Shown in pieces: positions 160 through 9,568 of a stretch of 31,409 bases of DNA (the first letter of the stretch is position 1; each line of letters opens with the position of its first letter). This stretch comes from Pyrobaculum sp. (GTDB lineage: Archaea; Thermoproteota; Thermoprotei; Thermoproteales; Thermoproteaceae). The translations under genes were made by a program, and so were the position numbers. The notes under the pieces are model-generated. The model saw only the letters and a list, made by a program, of their open reading frames with translations, did no database searches and was not told where the DNA came from. The stretch covers positions 1 through 31,409 of the forward strand of contig JBKBOT010000017.1 of assembly GCA_046293555.1 (NCBI GenBank), written 5' to 3'.

Positions 160-807
160 AGGCTAAAGGTGGCGCTTGTGGAGAGGTTGAGGGGGCCCGT
201 GGTGGTAGGTATCGGCCCTTGTCGCAGGTTAGAGAGGGGGAGCTAGGCGACTTTATACATGTGTAGAGTCTGGGGTGTGGGGCGGCGTGGCGCTTATGGA
301 TGCAGACCGCCGTGGGGCACTACGCCGTGTTGCCCACGCCGGAGCAGTACGTCCTCTATGAGGGGGGCGCCATAGGTGCCTCCTCCCTGGGGTTTCTGGA
401 GGTAGATAGAGAGGGAAATGTCACCCCGGCTCCCCGGGGGGCCGACGGGCCCCGGGGGCTTCCCCACAATTGCCATCGGGTCGCTCGGGCCGGGAGGTGG
501 AAGATAGAGGTGGGGGACTGTAGGCTATACATCAGGGAGGACGGGCCGGCGGTCAGTTCGTAAAGGGGGTCTTTCAGTGGGAGGCACGCAGTGGCGGAAG
601 ACAGAGAGGTACATCACAGAACGCGCCGTCTTCCGGCTGACAGATGGGGGGGTAGAGCTCGTGGAGTACGCCCCGGGGGTAGACCTAGAGAAGGTGTTGT
701 CAAAAATGGGCTTCACGCCTGTGCTGAAAATGCCCAGAGAGATATTTTGCGAAAAGAGGCTAGACCTGAGGAGAGAGGTGTTAAAGATGTTGGTCGAGAG
801 GTTATAG
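160..807 (+). pseudogene. Degraded acyl-CoA:acetate/propionate CoA-transferase (Pct/YdiF-type, C-terminal half)
   Basis: Collinear family motifs in different frames: VVVGIG (~199), VESGVWGG (~263), EQYVLYEGGAIGASSLGFLEVDREGNV (ORF 300-563), [37 protein letters not shown] (ORF 577-807); frameshifts and stops lie between them. Confidence 0.8.
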
Positions 808-2493
808 AATTTCGAAGTCCTGGAGGCGGCCTTCTGCCTCCTCCCACCTCACCTCTACCACCCTACATTGAAAGCCCCTACAGAGCTCCTCTATGAACTT
901 CCCCACCCTCTCCCTGTCTCCCTCAGCCACCACCTCCACTCTGCCGTCTGGCAGGTTTTTGGCGTAGCCCGTGAGCGCCAGGGCTTTTGCCCGCGCCCGC
1001 GCCGTGGGCCTAAAGCCCACACCCTGCACCTCGCCTTCTACCAACGCCACGGCTCTAGCCGCCTTGTCTACCACCCTCGCGAGGCCGCCTAACACCCTTG
1101 TGGCTAGCTTCTCTCTAAGCTTGTGGCTTGAGATGTAGACAAGGGCCTCTTCGGGCACAATAAGCCTGCCTGCCCCCTTGCCTAACACCTCGCCTATCGC
1201 CATGGGCTTTAGGTGTCTTATCTTGGCCAGCCTGTCTAGTATCTCCCCAGCCACCTTCTTGTGGGCAAAGATGGCCACCGCGCCGTTAGTGCCGGCGGTG
1301 GCGTCTGACATGACGTAATTCTCGGCGGCAAATTTAGACACCCTGTGTGACATCAGGGGGATGTCGGCCAGCTTTATGTCTACCCCAGCCCGCTCCGCCA
1401 CCTCTTTAAAGACAAAAACGCCGGGTCCCGACACGTCTATAGTGGCGGCGATGTGGGCCTGGGGGTCGAAGGGCTTGCCCAGTTCTGGCAGGTAGTCATA
1501 TATAACCCTGGCTACCTCCAGGTTGGGGGTGGCCATTATTTCCAACACTTTCTTCTTTTCTCTTTCAAACTCCTCTATCGGCATGACCTCTTTTTCGAAC
1601 TTCCTGTATAGCCCCTCGTCTGTATGTATGGCCACATATGTGGTGAAGTAAGCCAACTCGCCGAAGGGCCTAGTTATTAACACCACAAAGTCTTTTACAA
1701 TCTTGTCGTAAAATAGCGGCGGCTCTTTATCTAAAACGGCGTAGGCGGTGGCGCCAATTAGCAAATAGCCCCGCTGGGGCTGGGGGACCTCCACATATCT
1801 GCCCAACGTCGAGATGTGTTGTCTCACCCTGGCCTCGAGGGAGCTGCGGTACTGCGGCGGGGCGTCGTAAACCGGCGCGATGTGGAGATCCCTATAGGCG
1901 CCCTTGGAGTAAAGATCATTTAGGGCGTTGTTTATCGCCACGGCCACCTGTAGCGGCGAGTCGAAATCCTCGGAGGGGTCTATCACCTGTATGGTGTCGT
2001 TATTAGCCACCACGTATCCCTGTTGGCCCTCCGTCTTGAGGAAATCTACCATAAAGAACTCAGAGCCCTTCTTGGTGCTCACTATGCTATGACCTTTCCC
2101 GAGCCACACCTTGTGTCTAGAGGAGCCAAGAGCCTTATATAGGTTGGCCACATATCTTGCAAAAACCTCTGGCGTCCCCGCTTTGCCCATATATATTTGT
2201 ACTAACACGATGGCTACAGTGGGGGCAAACTTCTCGATAAATTCCGGCTCGATGGCGGGGCTCTCCACGTCGAGATATAGCCGTCTTAGCTCGGCATATT
2301 GGCCCGGCATTATGGCGGCGTCTTCCCTCGGCGCAATCACCAGGTTTAGCTTACGTACCTCGTCTTTTAGAAGCTGGAGGGCTGGATAGAGCACGTTGTA
2401 TAGATCCACCTTGACTGAACAGCCTAGCGAAAGCGACTCCAGCGCGATGCCCGCCTCGCGGTATAGCTTAACTCTCTCTCTAAACCGCTCCAT
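802..2493 (-). CDS. SelD-like (selenophosphate synthetase/AIR synthase superfamily) protein fused to a C-terminal acylphosphatase domain
   Basis: N-terminal GCSVKV (Cys-x-x-Lys as in SelD), [24 protein letters not shown]-terminal [11 protein letters not shown]...[17 protein letters not shown] acylphosphatase signature. ATG at 2493 overlaps the tusA TGA. Confidence 0.88.
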
Positions 2494-2732
2494 CACCTCT
2501 TCCTAATCCTGATCTTCCAGACCCCCGGCTCTACCTCCTCCACGCCCAGCACCTCGTGTCCCTCCCGTCTCGCCACAGCTGGCACGTTTTCACAGCTGGG
2601 GGGATTGTCTGTAATTATTTCCACCACGTCGCCGCTTTGCGCCTCCCGGAGGGCCTTCAACGTGGCCAGCTGGGGGTACGGACAGACGTATCCCCTCAGG
2701 TCTAGCACCACTCTTGACACAAGTCCAGTCAC
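2493..2732 (-). CDS. tusA: TusA/SirA-family sulfur carrier
   Basis: [11 protein letters not shown] (CPxP motif) and [10 protein letters not shown]; start inferred at GTG 2732 (alternative 2720), downstream of the TATA-like TTTTATA at 2760-2754. Confidence 0.9.
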
Positions 2733-2820
2733 GTCCCCATCTCTACCCCACAATATAAAAATTTCTAGAAGTGAAAAAATTGCCCACCAAGACGACAAAT
2801 GTACATAATTCCGGCCGGCC

Positions 2821-7611: not shown

Positions 7612-7613
7612 GT

Positions 7614-8996
7614 CTACGGTCCCCAGTATCTTGCCAACATGGAGTTAACCCAGGCTAGTTTATGTTGTTTAAATATCTCTGTTGGCTCATCCACTTTCGG
7701 ATAGCCCGGCATGGTTTTACCCTCATCGTCCCACCAGACCTCGATTCTGGTGAGGAAGTTTTTACTTACGTAACTCCAACAGACGTTATTTACCTTTCTG
7801 ATCTCTGCCGGCCTTTTTCCAAACATGTCGGCAAATATGTCGGCAAGCCTCTGCGCCTCCGTGACGGCGGCGTACATGGACTTTGTATACGGCGCCGCGA
7901 TGTGATCGCCTAAGCCAAAGACGTCGTCAAATTTCTTACTTCTAAACTTCGAGACGTCTACCTCCATAAAGGTGGCCCCCAGGCCGGCATTTCTCACAAA
8001 AGCCGGTGCTAGATTTCTCGGCAGTATTGAAATTAGGTCGAAACTAAACTTCTCGCCCTTGTCTGTCTCCACAACTTTCGCCGCGGGGTCTACCCTAACT
8101 ACTTTCTGCCCTGAGATGTATTCAACGCCTTGTTTGTCTATCCATTCTCTAAATATCTTAGCCTTTGGCGGCGGCTGTGGGTTGGCGTTGGCGTCAATTA
8201 ACGTCACCTTTACCCCCTTGGCCTTAACGGCCTCAGCTGTCAACAGAGTTACCTCATATGGGGCGGGGGGACATTTATAGGGCGCGGAAGGCACGGCGAA
8301 GACTACCTTGCCGCCTGTGGGGAGAGCTAGCGCCTTTTCTCTTAGGGCAAGCGCGGTGGAGGGATACCAGGCGTGGTAGTTCGGTACTTTGTCTAAATTC
8401 TCGACTTCCCACCAGGCTAGATCTATACCCGGGGAGAGCACCAGGTAGTCATAACTGATTTTACCCACTTCTGTATACACCACCCTGTTTTGAGGATCTA
8501 GAGAGGTGACTGTGCCATATACCACCCTAACGGCGTCTTTCACAGCCAGGTTGTCTATAGACACAGTTACCTTCTCCATGGGGACCTCCCCGGCGACGAA
8601 GTCTGTATGCGAGGGGCCTGAGACCCAGTAGTTATGTCTGTCTACTATTGTGATTACAAAGGGCTTCTCGCCTGGGAAGTGGTGTAGTAACTCTCTTGTA
8701 AACGCGGCGCCGCCGGGGCCGCCTCCTACCACCACTATGTGTTTTTTGCCAGGTACGCGCCAGGTTAGGTCGTTATTTACCGCCGTGACGCGTGTGGGCG
8801 CCACAGTCTGTGTGACAGTCTGGGTGACTGTAGTCTGTTGTGTCACAGTTGTCGTCTGTGTTGTCGTCTCTGTGATGGTCTCCCTTCTTGGAAAGGCCGA
8901 CGAGCCGATGGCGGCGCCTACCACAAGGCCCACAATACCTGCAGCAGCTGCCTTCAAGAAGTCGCGCCTACCCTCTCTCCTCTCGCTTCCAGCCAT
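7614..8996 (-). CDS. Tat-exported FAD-dependent sulfide dehydrogenase flavoprotein (FccB/SoxF-like, Sqr superfamily)
   Basis: RRDFLK Tat motif, VVVGGGPGG FAD site, YKCPPAPYE and NNVCWS redox cysteines, FGLGD; start taken at ATG 8996. Confidence 0.85.
   Translation of the reverse strand: MAGSERREGRRDFLKAAAAGIVGLVVGAAIGSSAFPRRETITETTTQTTTVTQQTTVTQTVTQTVAPTRVTAVNNDLTWRVPGKKHIVVVGGGPGGAAFTRELLHHFPGEKPFVITIVDRHNYWVSGPSHTDFVAGEVPMEKVTVSIDNLAVKDAVRVVYGTVTSLDPQNRVVYTEVGKISYDYLVLSPGIDLAWWEVENLDKVPNYHAWYPSTALALREKALALPTGGKVVFAVPSAPYKCPPAPYEVTLLTAEAVKAKGVKVTLIDANANPQPPPKAKIFREWIDKQGVEYISGQKVVRVDPAAKVVETDKGEKFSFDLISILPRNLAPAFVRNAGLGATFMEVDVSKFRSKKFDDVFGLGDHIAAPYTKSMYAAVTEAQRLADIFADMFGKRPAEIRKVNNVCWSYVSKNFLTRIEVWWDDEGKTMPGYPKVDEPTEIFKQHKLAWVNSMLARYWGP
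8795..8880 (-). repeat. Thr/Gln-rich low-complexity linker (TITETTTQTTTVTQQTTVTQTVTQT)
   Basis: Imperfect ACA/GTC/CAG codon repeats between the signal anchor and the FAD domain. Confidence 0.7.
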
Positions 8997-9172
8997 ACGC
9001 AACTGTATACATCTATTAAAAAATGTTATTATCTAGCAATCTGAGAATAGTTTTTTGGGAAAATATCTGCAACTCTAGCTCTTTGCCCAAAGACTCGGCC
9101 GGCATGGTGCCGCGCGTCTTGGTGTTGGCTCTGGCGTCAGCCATATTTATTAACTCTTATCGAGATTTCTTC

Positions 9173-9568
9173 ATGAAAGTTGCAATTGCGGCAACTCCAG
9201 AGGGGGCCATATTTCCGGGACATTTTGCCCACTCGCCTGTGTTTAAAATCTATGAATACAGCAATGGAGAGATGAGGCTGTTAGAAGTGAGGGAAAACCC
9301 CCTCGGCTCTGTGCCGGACCGCGACTATGGACCCCACCATGAACACCACCACGGCCGCCACGGGGGGCTTCCCAAATATAAGTGGCTTAGAGAAAACCTC
9401 CTGCCGGATGTGGAGGTGGTGATTGCAGGTGGGGCGTGTCAGACGAGCCACATGTATTTCACCTCTGAGGGGGTAAAGATGTTGTATGTAGAGCCTGTGG
9501 AACTCGACATGTTGATACAATACATTTCTGAAAACCCCAAGGAGTTTGAAGAGGCTATCGGCGGGTAA
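9173..9568 (+). CDS. NifB/NifX (Nitro_FeMo-Co) family protein with a His-rich insert
   Basis: MKVAIA...GHFAHSPVFKIYE...ENP...HHEHHHGRHGG...DVEVVIAGGAC; ATG 9173 follows TTTATTAA. Confidence 0.78.
   Translation: MKVAIAATPEGAIFPGHFAHSPVFKIYEYSNGEMRLLEVRENPLGSVPDRDYGPHHEHHHGRHGGLPKYKWLRENLLPDVEVVIAGGACQTSHMYFTSEGVKMLYVEPVELDMLIQYISENPKEFEEAIGG

Follow-up and report, generated by a model that had tools for sequence, protein, structure and literature searches.

A Pyrobaculum sulfur-respiration island probably juxtaposes three independently inherited gene units, one of them encoding a candidate exported sulfur carrier

An archaeal family of SelD-like proteins was described by Li et al. (2014), and that paper already contains its fusion to an acylphosphatase (AcP) domain, its TusA and DsrE neighbours and a thiophosphate model, proposed without experiments. 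It also states that a known selenium trait was found in no crenarchaeon bearing the SelD-like protein. We found no enzyme activity reported in the literature for any member of this family. Outside the cytoplasm, a described arrangement is that of the SoxY carrier arm, with its cysteine on a flexible terminal arm (PMC6067878). Here we compare with these systems an 8.8-kb range (802..9568) within a 31,409-nt stretch of Pyrobaculum sp. DNA, hereafter the window (assembly GCA_046293555.1, contig JBKBOT010000017.1), belonging to a 96%-complete genome.

All ORFs of the initial annotation were recovered at their coordinates, and domain calls, made with Pfam and NCBIfam models and their cutoffs, match its labels. 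The gene orientations that it described were also seen, namely a minus-strand phnD-dsrE-tusA-selD-like run with overlapping tusA and selD-like, a divergent phnCE pair and a tight fccB-unknown-yeeE run. A Nitro_FeMo-Co (NifX/NifB-like) domain protein (9023..9568, plus strand, divergent from fccB; PF02579 28.8 bits, cutoff 26.3), absent from that annotation, is also encoded within the range, outside the units discussed below, and the location of its homologues varies among relatives. The adjoining "Ttr/Dsr respiratory core" is confirmed, since genes for TtrA/TtrB-like proteins, NrfD, DsrC, DsrE, DsrBA, AprBA, TauE, Sat, and a DsrK-like protein lie near the range. They include an outward-facing Ttr/Phs/Psr-type molybdopterin reductase (11416..16699, plus strand) composed of an Fe-S subunit (TtrB model 199.9 bits, below 416), an NrfD anchor (33.8 bits) and a catalytic subunit (TtrA 434.1 bits, below 1750) with an N-terminal twin-arginine motif. 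The range itself had been taken for a single sulfur import-and-activation module. We favor, with a probability of about 0.65, a different reading: three independently inherited units are neighbors within a sulfur-respiration island of the Pyrobaculum type, dsrE-tusA-selD-like::AcP (unit 1, 802-3183), phnD/phnCE (unit 2, 3233-5824) and fccB-unk247-yeeE (unit 3, 5840-9002), each working by the mechanism proposed below.

Unit 3 is a self-contained operon on the minus strand, in which fccB (7614..9002) is followed after 2 nt by unk247 (6868..7611), itself overlapping yeeE (5840..6877) by 10 nt. The order and strand of this trio are kept in 10/10 loci (the window, the genome G098, the metagenome contig L082, and seven distant genomes). 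The first gene encodes an FccB/FCSD-like flavoprotein with a Thr/Gln-rich stalk (FCSD_central 61.1 bits, Pyr_redox_2 50.3 bits), whose nearest solved chain is the FCSD flavin subunit 5n1t (E = 2.2e-34). Its Tat signal (model score 19.4 vs 16.7) bears out the export predicted initially, as the twin-arginine pair is invariant, together with Cys244 and Cys408, in all six full-length orthologues. The third gene encodes a YeeE/TsuA-family channel (Sulf_transp 114.0 bits), in which Cys47, Cys111, and Cys308 are invariant across eight orthologues; no second ORF of the YeeE family was found in the genome. The nearest tusA/dsrE pair is that of unit 1. Between them, the 247-aa product of unk247 had no Pfam or NCBIfam match, and its family comprises three clusters among 5.8 billion proteins and eight representatives among 1.84 billion. 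Its AF2 model (pLDDT 87.8) has an N-terminal transmembrane helix, a disordered linker, an all-beta ectodomain, and a flexible C-terminal arm; fold and sequence searches returned no clear relative, including SoxY or any known carrier. We conclude that unk247 represents a new, rare and unannotated family of membrane-anchored exported proteins. A conserved tail cysteine, overlooked when this ORF was listed as unknown, is the penultimate residue Cys246, the sole cysteine invariant in 10/10 aligned sequences; the nine other trio ORFs all end in G-T-C-G/S.

We modelled a complex of FccB (residues 78-462), unk247 (37-247), and FAD along with three controls. It scored 0.70, versus 0.00 for the best of the controls; this mark was reached by 116/157 solved complexes and 2/215 mismatched pairs, a calibration from which our model departs by its shallow custom alignments (6 and 9 rows) and riding ligand. 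One of the three runs scored 0.00, contact agreement between runs was at least 0% and partner pLDDT at least 80. The interface includes residues 240-244 of unk247 and 239-241 of FccB. This control-passing model supports the binding of unk247 to the Tat-exported FccB-like flavoprotein, and unk247 is probably a sulfur carrier to the membrane channel via its tail cysteine. FccB would take sulfur from extracellular sulfide or polysulfide via the Cys244/Cys408 pair and load it as a persulfide onto Cys246, the flexible tail would present it to the three-cysteine YeeE channel, and in the cytoplasm it would pass to a TusA/DsrE pair whose genes lie outside the trio. We infer each of these chemical steps, and the flow could correspond to oxidative loading or to reductive release.

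The trio might also operate in reverse, with FccB reducing unk247-bound polysulfide or persulfide for detoxification or respiration, or involve no relay at all, unk247 being an anchor or assembly subunit that replaces cytochrome FccA and whose cysteine binds a metal or has a structural role. The trio encodes neither a cytochrome nor any other electron acceptor for FccB, the outward-facing reductase lies beside it in the window, distantly related Mo and Fe-S subunits flank it in 4/7 distant loci, and an Fe-S subunit directly follows yeeE in two loci (L098 and L099); moreover, the complex model speaks to binding, not to chemistry. However, the only invariant cysteine of unk247 sits on a flexible terminal arm, as in the SoxY layout (PMC6067878), the gene for the invariant three-cysteine importer is always next to it, and the trio of G098 has no reductase nearby, so that we regard a reversed or absent relay as unlikely.

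Unit 2 consists of a PhnD-type substrate-binding protein (3233..4252, minus strand) with a transmembrane-like stretch at residues 11-45 as N-terminal membrane anchor, and of a divergent plus-strand pair encoding an ABC ATPase (4494..5111; ABC_tran 108.2 bits) and a PhnE-like permease (5105..5824; BPD_transp_1 54.4 bits). PhnD matches PF12974 (120.1 bits) and TIGR01098 (113.2, cutoff 112.05), whereas the PhnD equivalog (97.1), PhnC (164.4), and PhnE (201.4) scores fall below their cutoffs of 261.1, 266.1, and 216.7, respectively. Orthologues of phnD occur in 9/120 genomes of the class, never near selD-like, TusA, YeeE, or unk247; phnC and phnE are adjacent to it in 8/8 relatives, its flanks differ in the five relatives examined, and phnDCE is also present in two genomes (G105 and G118) with no SelD-like match. 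Unit 2 is an ordinary PhnD-family ABC importer for an oxyanion, without a sulfur link, and the place it had been given in a sulfur relay is lost. Since phnD precedes dsrE by only 49 nt in the same orientation, the two may be co-transcribed in this genome.

The broader proposal, one relay running from the exported flavoprotein through YeeE or the ABC importer and TusA/DsrE to SelD-like, agrees with the contiguity of all the genes in the window, where gaps are short, and with the single YeeE of the genome. Part of it recurs elsewhere: yeeE, tusA, and selD-like are consecutive in two lineages without the fusion, and in 3/3 relatives examined a sister module, non-homologous to unit 3 and with exported proteins bearing Cys tails, has tusA, dsrE, and yeeE in one operon next to the gene of a Tat FccB-like protein, 10-36 kb from selD-like. 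A trio-type fccB, though broken, directly adjoins dsrE-tusA-selD-like in G108, which is the closest of the relatives sharing this layout. The sister module and the two lineages without the fusion support the YeeE to TusA/DsrE step of the outside-to-inside relay, though not the membership of the ABC transporter. Against a single module, tblastn of window proteins within 10 kb on either side of selD-like in 35 relatives gave no match for PhnD, PhnE, or unk247, two weak ones for YeeE and one, the broken gene, for trio-type FccB. Likewise, no SelD-like match was found in the five trio-bearing distant genomes tested, and ~630 kb separate the trio from selD-like in G098. The gene-neighborhood comparison called for initially thus upholds the TusA to SelD-like hand-over, the two genes being no more than 300 bp apart in 34/36 loci, but not the linkage of phnDCE and the trio to selD-like, and a single relay is quite unlikely. 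Functional cross-talk between unit 1 and the trio is nonetheless plausible in this genome, given its only YeeE and the location of the nearest tusA/dsrE pair in unit 1.

Unit 1 represents the SelD-like family that Li et al. (2014) described in archaea, to which the initial annotation had already pointed. Its minus-strand fusion gene (802..2496, 564 aa) encodes a SelD-like part (nt 1102-2490; NF038049 SelD_rel_HyperS 658.8 bits over residues 3-465, cutoff 250) and an AcP domain (nt 808-1047; Pfam Acylphosphatase 78.2 bits, residues 484-563) that can be aligned with solved acylphosphatases. In the AF2 model (pLDDT 88.1) they are joined by a flexible linker (residues 469-477, below 50). An AcP-inclusive query was covered to at least 99% in the loci of 30/35 relatives. 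The fold is nearest SelD (Foldseek, 3fd5 E = 1.1e-15; 5l16 TM 0.73), with 6/7 catalytic residues of E. coli SelD identical: Cys26-x-x-Lys29, D59, N190, D194, and D354 correspond to C17, K20, D51, N87, D91, and D227. The adjoining tusA (2493..2798, minus strand; Pfam TusA 89.1 bits, CPxP cysteine Cys39) overlaps the fusion gene by 4 nt and is translationally coupled to it; its true start is probably downstream of the one listed (101 aa), because the Pfam match sets in only at residue 31 and most ORFs of relatives are 77-96 aa long. In three relatives, the SelD-linked TusA shares 72-78% identity with this protein, versus 48-50% for the YeeE-linked one. The DsrE-family protein (2821..3183, minus strand; Pfam DsrE 30.0 bits, single Cys82), which corresponds to the "Prx-like COG2210" neighbor of Li et al. 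(2014), is 50-58% identical to the DsrE of relatives, whether SelD-linked or YeeE-linked, and 15/36 loci have a DsrE-family gene at most 3 kb from selD-like. Of 120 genomes, 28 combine SelD-like with AprA, eight carry only SelD-like and 15 only AprA, and in one genus SelD-like occurs in 8/9 genomes and DsrA in 1/9. The association with respiration is therefore loose, and a biosynthetic use of unit 1 is more likely than a respiratory one. TusA, possibly fed by DsrE, would hand its sulfane sulfur to Cys26, a residue of the mobile loop at the N terminus, the ATP-dependent SelD-like part would phosphorylate it to a thiophosphate-type donor, and the tethered AcP domain would hydrolyse a phospho-anhydride by-product or intermediate. 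Such an activation, also suggested initially, agrees with the model of Li et al. (2014) and is thus not new.

Could the chalcogen instead be selenium, with SelD-like making selenophosphate and YeeE, TusA, the PhnD-type protein, and the flavoprotein acting as counterparts of YedE, YedF, a putative selenate-binding protein, and a SelD-associated oxidoreductase? The SelD catalytic motif is retained and the best NCBIfam matches are selenium-linked, but all lie far below their cutoffs (TusA to YedF 62.7, cutoff 79; YeeE to YedE/FdhT 84.5, cutoff 350; PhnD to TIGR04553 48.1, cutoff 250; FccB to TIGR03169 "Nterm_to_SelD" 46.3, cutoff 310). A bona fide selD is missing from the genome (the best match, on another contig, reached 22.6 bits vs 125), and neither selU nor a tRNA-Sec was called, this last sign being weak as the scan found only 35 tRNAs. 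The surrounding genes are those of sulfate, sulfite, and thiosulfate chemistry, which, together with the lack of selenium traits mentioned above, makes selenium very unlikely.

The HypE cysteine is C-terminal. It is very improbable that the fusion is HypE/HypF-like, with AcP processing an acyl phosphate or carbamoyl phosphate while the PurM-fold domain uses ATP to dehydrate or transfer a group bound to a cysteine. HypE scores close behind SelD in fold (E = 5.9e-13), it alone among PurM-superfamily sequences is reached by the family profile (E = 0.15), and the AcP matches include AcP domains of HypF. But the fusion agrees with SelD in its N-terminal cysteine, Cys-x-x-Lys loop, and Asp/Asn set, its invariable partner is the sulfur carrier TusA and other HypF-type domains are absent.

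The three-unit reading sets a described family and an ordinary importer beside an exported system. By analogy with SoxYZ feeding SoxT, unit 3 may be a capture-carry-import route for sulfane sulfur, in which the terminal-arm cysteine of unk247 resembles the carrier arm of SoxY (PMC6067878), although the two proteins show no relation in fold or sequence.

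The initial annotation had placed the genes between positions 802 and 9568 in one sulfur import-and-activation module, and its gene identities and positions agree with the open reading frames (ORFs) and with Pfam and NCBIfam matches. The minus strand carries a gene for a SelD-like protein of 564 aa with a C-terminal acylphosphatase domain (SelD-like::AcP, NF038049; 802-2496), tusA (2493-2798), which overlaps it by 4 nt as described, and dsrE (2821-3183). The gene for a PhnD-type binding protein (3233-4252, minus strand) is separated by 241 nt from plus-strand genes for an ABC ATPase (4494-5111) and a PhnE-like permease (5105-5824), which are divergent from it, as had also been noted. 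The remaining three genes, all on the minus strand, form the tight run already recognized: fccB, encoding a flavoprotein of FCSD type that bears a Tat signal (7614-9002), unk247, an ORF of 247 aa without any match in Pfam and NCBIfam (6868-7611; 2-nt gap to fccB), and yeeE (Sulf_transp family; 5840-6877; 10-nt overlap with unk247). The single module was not supported: in neighbourhood and co-occurrence profiling, which covered 120 genomes of the class and, for the trio, more distant hosts, the selD-like, ABC and fccB-unk247-yeeE units occur separately in relatives. The original proposal is mostly a rediscovery combined with a grouping drawn too wide; its new element is the fccB-unk247-yeeE trio with its tail-cysteine protein, a variant of the carrier-to-YeeE import design.

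Outside these genes the window forms a dissimilatory sulfur island, in line with the Ttr/Dsr respiratory genes reported nearby; its products are a molybdopterin reductase of the Ttr/Phs type that bears a twin-arginine signal of its own, along with DsrC, DsrE, DsrBA, AprBA, TauE, Sat, and one protein resembling DsrK. An ORF with a Nitro_FeMo-Co domain (9023-9568) starts just 20 nt from fccB on the opposite strand; its first 50 residues appear non-genuine, a later Met at ~9173 being the likelier start. Two more genes may have accessory functions in the APS pathway of archaea: one upstream of aprBA, whose 297-aa product matches QmoC weakly (20512-21405; 39.1 bits against a cutoff of 300), and one for a DUF6955 protein (26472-26822) immediately 3' of sat. 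The same genome contains a second, partial DsrA-like gene at a contig end (G000:C5:1-756; G, C and L numbers denote genomes, G000 being that of the window, their contigs, and loci from relatives), with 56% identity over residues 11-263.

The PhnD-type system (3233-5824) had been included among the sulfur importers, a role that its distribution does not support. Orthologues of phnD occur in 9 of the 120 genomes; in all eight relatives they are accompanied by phnC and phnE, with selD-like, tusA, yeeE, and unk247 absent there, and two of the hosts, 95% (G105) and 80% (G118) complete, have no SelD-like match. The genes flanking phnDCE differ across all five relatives examined and provide no hint of a substrate. 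Equivalog scores stay below cutoff for PhnD (97.1 against 261.1), PhnC (164.4 against 266.1), and PhnE (201.4 against 216.7), and only the broad subfamily TIGR01098 passes for PhnD (113.2 against 112.05). This is an ABC importer unrelated to the sulfur units, and its position beside dsrE is particular to the window's genome. In two complete genomes the phnD orthologues (G098:C1:1928988-1929986 and G092:C1:1604763-1605770) each contain one in-frame stop, one TAG and one TAA, and may therefore be pseudogenes.

The dsrE-tusA-selD-like unit (802-3183) corresponds to an already published system, to which the window adds nothing beyond a weaker link with APS reductase. As the initial annotation had stated, its SelD-like protein belongs to a family predicted to act in sulfur metabolism: it matches NF038049 ('SelD-related putative sulfur metabolism protein') with 658.8-659.7 bits (cutoff 250) over model positions 1-464 of 465, and its C-terminus matches the Pfam Acylphosphatase domain with 78.2 bits. 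The family exceeds the cutoff in 36 of the 120 genomes; the query including the acylphosphatase domain is covered over at least 99% in 30 of 35 loci from relatives, the five others comprising two with non-fused genes (of 477 and 480 aa) and three that are disrupted or truncated by contig ends. In a neighbour census based on profile HMMs, as tblastn at E ≤ 1e-5 had overlooked divergently oriented TusA genes at nine loci, tusA lies within 300 bp of selD-like in 34 of 36 loci, in some genera divergent from it and not overlapping; a gene of the DsrE family lies no more than 3 kb away in 15 of the 36. The selD-like gene is split by a stop or frameshifts in two relatives (G085:C2:235008-236335 and G075:C2:83611-85041), which fits patchy loss; such loss shows in the window's genus too, where the gene is present in 9 of the 17 other genomes. 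The family was described from Sulfolobales and Thermoproteales by Li, Jiang, Ni, Liu and Zhang (2014, BMC Genomics 15:908, PMC4210487), who reported that the fusion with acylphosphatase is present throughout the Thermoproteales, that the neighbours are SirA-like (TusA) and 'Prx-like' COG2210 genes, and that the family strictly co-occurs with APS reductase, and who offered two thiophosphate models for its function. With the same domain, the same fusion, and SirA/TusA and COG2210 (DsrE-family) neighbours, the unit shows no essential difference from theirs. A 2022 review (PMC9312934) cites the role as a prediction only, and we found no experimental follow-up in the literature searched.

The reported strict co-occurrence with APS reductase no longer holds over the 120 genomes: 28 contain both SelD-like and AprA, 8 only SelD-like (one of them 99% complete), and 15 only AprA, including all seven genomes of one genus. 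In another genus SelD-like is present in eight of nine genomes and DsrA in one of nine. Because of this incomplete overlap SelD-like is not bound to dissimilatory sulfate or sulfite reduction, and we dropped such a tie, favouring instead a role as biosynthetic sulfur donor.

In fold comparison, the AlphaFold model of the SelD-like protein (pLDDT 88.1) lies nearest to SelD structures (E = 1.1e-15; target-based TM of at most 0.73), HypE and ThiL ranking only slightly lower. Residues C26, K29, D59, N190, D194, and D354, invariant in 17 sequences, correspond to C17, K20, D51, N87, D91, and D227 of Escherichia coli SelD, and Glu146 occupies the position of D68. At the sequence level this likeness is hardly visible: SelD/AIRS models, including TIGR00476, gave no match on residues 1-470 at E ≤ 10 (Pfam, NCBIfam), a TIGR00476 search of the whole genome did not match the gene, neither phmmer nor a 17-sequence profile reached SelD in the PDB (only HypE, at E = 0.15), and hhalign against E. 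coli SelD returned a probability of only 25.6%. The genome yielded no selU and no tRNA-Sec call, the latter a weak absence because the aragorn scan disallowed introns and found only 35 tRNAs. Compared with SelD (E. coli b1764; 3u0o, 3fd5, 2yye, 5l16), the SelD-like protein thus shares the closest fold, the Cys-x-x-Lys loop and identical counterparts of D51, N87, D91, and D227, whereas it differs in having no HMM match, ~120 extra residues, the acylphosphatase fusion, and a host in which the selenium trait was not detected by these searches. The residues without E. coli SelD counterpart (window 1102-2490; residues 151-173 and 280-335) include a family-specific stretch, N-N-D-T-I...D, that does not vary, as well as an insertion of four helices, and these segments may determine substrate choice.

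The sulfur activation by SelD-like being a rediscovered 2014 prediction, the useful result is the trio (5840-9002), for which our literature search found nothing in print. Its central protein, Unk247, is very rare, with three clusters among 5.8 billion proteins and eight representatives (E ≤ 0.001) among 1.84 billion, one of which, a repeat protein of 1626 aa, was left out of the alignment. Cysteines occur at positions 198, 203, and 246 only, without any CxxCH motif; the penultimate one, Cys246, sits in a conserved C-terminal block and is invariant in the 10 aligned sequences at identities down to 24%, the two others being ~90% conserved. All nine other trio Unk247 ORFs extracted end in G-T-C-G/S. 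A locus search from five closer sequences gave only one genome locus (G098, among housekeeping genes) and one metagenome contig; together with the window and seven genomes from two other families of the phylum, this makes ten loci, and the gene order fccB-unk247-yeeE and the single strand are kept in all ten. Identities in the seven distant genomes are 45-49% for FccB, 31-35% for Unk247, and 34-39% for YeeE. G098 carries the trio and a SelD-like gene at separate loci, with ~630 kb between them. Three further genomes (G148, G180, and G408) gave weak partial matches to the Unk247 profile (E = 1.6e-5 to 4.2e-4). In four of the seven distant hosts the trio is located inside a molybdopterin-oxidoreductase cluster (L098 2795-3319; L099 2362-2889 and 6944-9226; L096/L097), with the Fe-S subunit gene directly 3' of yeeE and the Mo subunit gene divergent, upstream of fccB; relative to the window enzyme, similarity is only 27-38% (in segments) for the Mo subunit and 46-48% for the Fe-S subunit. 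The nearest relative sharing the window's layout (L047, G108:C7, 11476-12481) has a trio-type fccB (74-83% identical) adjoining dsrE-tusA-selD-like; it is inverted, spread over three reading frames, and missing residues 1-125, and a short contig of 2.6 kb (L080) ends in a fragment of YeeE. Either a copy in decay or an artefact of assembly would account for this.

The model of Unk247 (pLDDT 87.8) starts with a membrane helix at the N-terminus, followed by a disordered linker and an all-beta ectodomain, and closes with a helix whose last three residues are flexible (pLDDT < 50). Foldseek against the PDB retrieved only generic tandem beta-sandwich matches (TM ≤ 0.35, rmsd ≥ 9 Å), the VIA wide fold search reached at best Z 5.7 with lysozyme inhibitor and cupin folds, and no ESM Atlas score was 0.9 or higher. 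With an invariant penultimate cysteine, a G-T-C-G/S end and a flexible terminus, the tail is reminiscent of the Gly-rich swinging arm of SoxY.

The flavoprotein encoded upstream matches FCSD_central (61.1 bits) and the FAD-binding domain (50.3 bits), and its residues 87-420 align with solved FCSD (E = 2.2e-34). C244 and C408 are invariant and align with cysteines of 5n1t, which we take to be the active-site redox pair; a Gly stands at the position of what is presumably the covalent FAD-link cysteine of FCSD. The twin-arginine pair is kept. YeeE (Sulf_transp, 114.0 bits) scores far below the TsuA equivalog cutoffs (60.8 against 400 and 42.5 against 645), and its C47, C111, and C308 are invariant in eight of eight sequences. 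For mature FccB modelled together with FAD and the Unk247 ectodomain, the complex prediction reached 0.70, compared with 0.00 for the best of three controls; 116 of 157 solved complexes attain this mark, as do 2 of 215 mismatched pairs. Contact agreement across the runs was at least 0%, the partner had a pLDDT of 80 or more, and one run out of three gave 0.00. The predicted interface includes Unk247 residues 240-244, just before Cys246, and FccB residues 239-241, just before C244, and this modelling supports a putative binding of FccB to Unk247.

A comparable arrangement occurs in other members of the same archaeal family. All three relatives examined possess a Tat FccB-like gene and genes for membrane-anchored Cys-tailed proteins beside a tusA-dsrE-yeeE operon (L102, G092:C1:1552000-1571999, at 10502-17905; L101, G094, at 2853-10406; L103, G117, at 8571-15969), at a distance of 10-36 kb from selD-like in these genomes. 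The tailed proteins, exported ones of 340-354 aa ending in A-L-A-C-G-G and others of 392-394 aa with a C-G-D tail, are unrelated to Unk247 (best BLASTP E = 0.26). Since, in addition, yeeE-tusA-selD-like are consecutive in two non-fused lineages, the combination of exported flavoprotein, Cys-tailed carrier, YeeE, and TusA/DsrE is a recurrent design in the family. This recurrence, like the proximity of TusA and SelD-like, agrees with the outside-to-inside relay of the initial annotation, in which sulfur passed from FccB through YeeE to TusA/DsrE and SelD-like. SelD-like was found in none of the five distant trio hosts searched. Within the window the hand-over finds partial support because the genome has a single YeeE and its nearest tusA/dsrE pair lies in the selD-like unit; against it, the window TusA is the SelD-linked orthologue, with 72-78% identity as opposed to 48-50% to YeeE-linked TusA. 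In the flanks retrieved for eight other trio loci, a tusA-dsrE pair is present in two and TusA is absent from six.

From these elements we propose that, outside the cell, the FccB cysteine pair would take sulfur from sulfide or polysulfide and transfer it, in persulfide form, to Cys246 of Unk247, whose flexible tail would deliver it to the cysteine ladder of YeeE, with TusA/DsrE taking over inside. Thiosulfate or tetrathionate may be an alternative cargo, because archaeal DsrE3A and TusA carry thiosulfonate after reaction with tetrathionate (PMC4175335) and a Ttr-like reductase adjoins the trio. The persulfide route would make Unk247 the founder of an archaeal family of extracytoplasmic covalent sulfur carriers, loaded at the tail cysteine by an FccB-like flavoprotein and threading sulfur into YeeE, as a minimal three-protein capture-carry-import pathway independent of SoxYZ and of the sister Cys-tailed proteins, a tentative reading to which we assign a probability of roughly 0.4. 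Sulfur delivery from outside to YeeE/SoxT channels is called unknown or only 'conceivable' by Li J. et al. (2024, PMC11582611), and the trio offers a compact thermostable system, with one cysteine, one flavoprotein, and one channel, for direct study of the hand-over to YeeE. If the proposal is true, archaeal FCSD homologues, noted without demonstrated activity by Blank (2012, PMC3512248), gain a defined partner and substrate.

Compared with FccAB (5n1t, 1fcd, 3vrd), the window flavoprotein aligns and has both active-site cysteines, but differs in its uncleaved-looking Tat signal, its Thr/Gln-rich stalk, and its partner: no gene for the cytochrome c subunit FccA accompanies it, there being no cytochrome domain among its neighbours, and the next gene encodes the predicted partner Unk247. 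The channel belongs to the same Sulf_transp family as TsuA of the TsuA/TsuB (YeeE/YeeD) systems of E. coli and Spirochaeta thermophila (PMC11582611), with ~345 aa and three cysteines that are conserved; unlike these systems, the trio operon has no TsuB/YeeD gene, and two genes for exported proteins always precede yeeE. With the sister module the trio shares a Tat FccB-like flavoprotein, a membrane-anchored exported protein with a cysteine tail, and a YeeE channel, whereas the sister YeeE is a longer paralogue (416-420 aa) and tusA and dsrE are inside the sister operon. The closest functional parallel is the SoxYZ-SoxT1A-TusA route, in which sulfur bound to SoxY, whose GGCGG cysteine is an established sulfur carrier (PMC6067878), has been proposed to pass along three SoxT1A cysteines to TusA (PMC11582611). 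The trio likewise combines an extracytoplasmic protein bearing a near-terminal cysteine, a three-cysteine channel of the YeeE family, and TusA/DsrE as presumed acceptor. It differs in that Unk247 has no detectable SoxY homology or fold likeness (SoxY is absent among the Foldseek and VIA matches listed, and the best profile match among PDB sequences has E = 0.58) and in that the operon encodes neither a SoxZ partner, as a second small exported protein, nor SoxXAB; Unk247 is instead membrane-anchored, would be loaded by an FccB-like flavoprotein, and is found in archaea.
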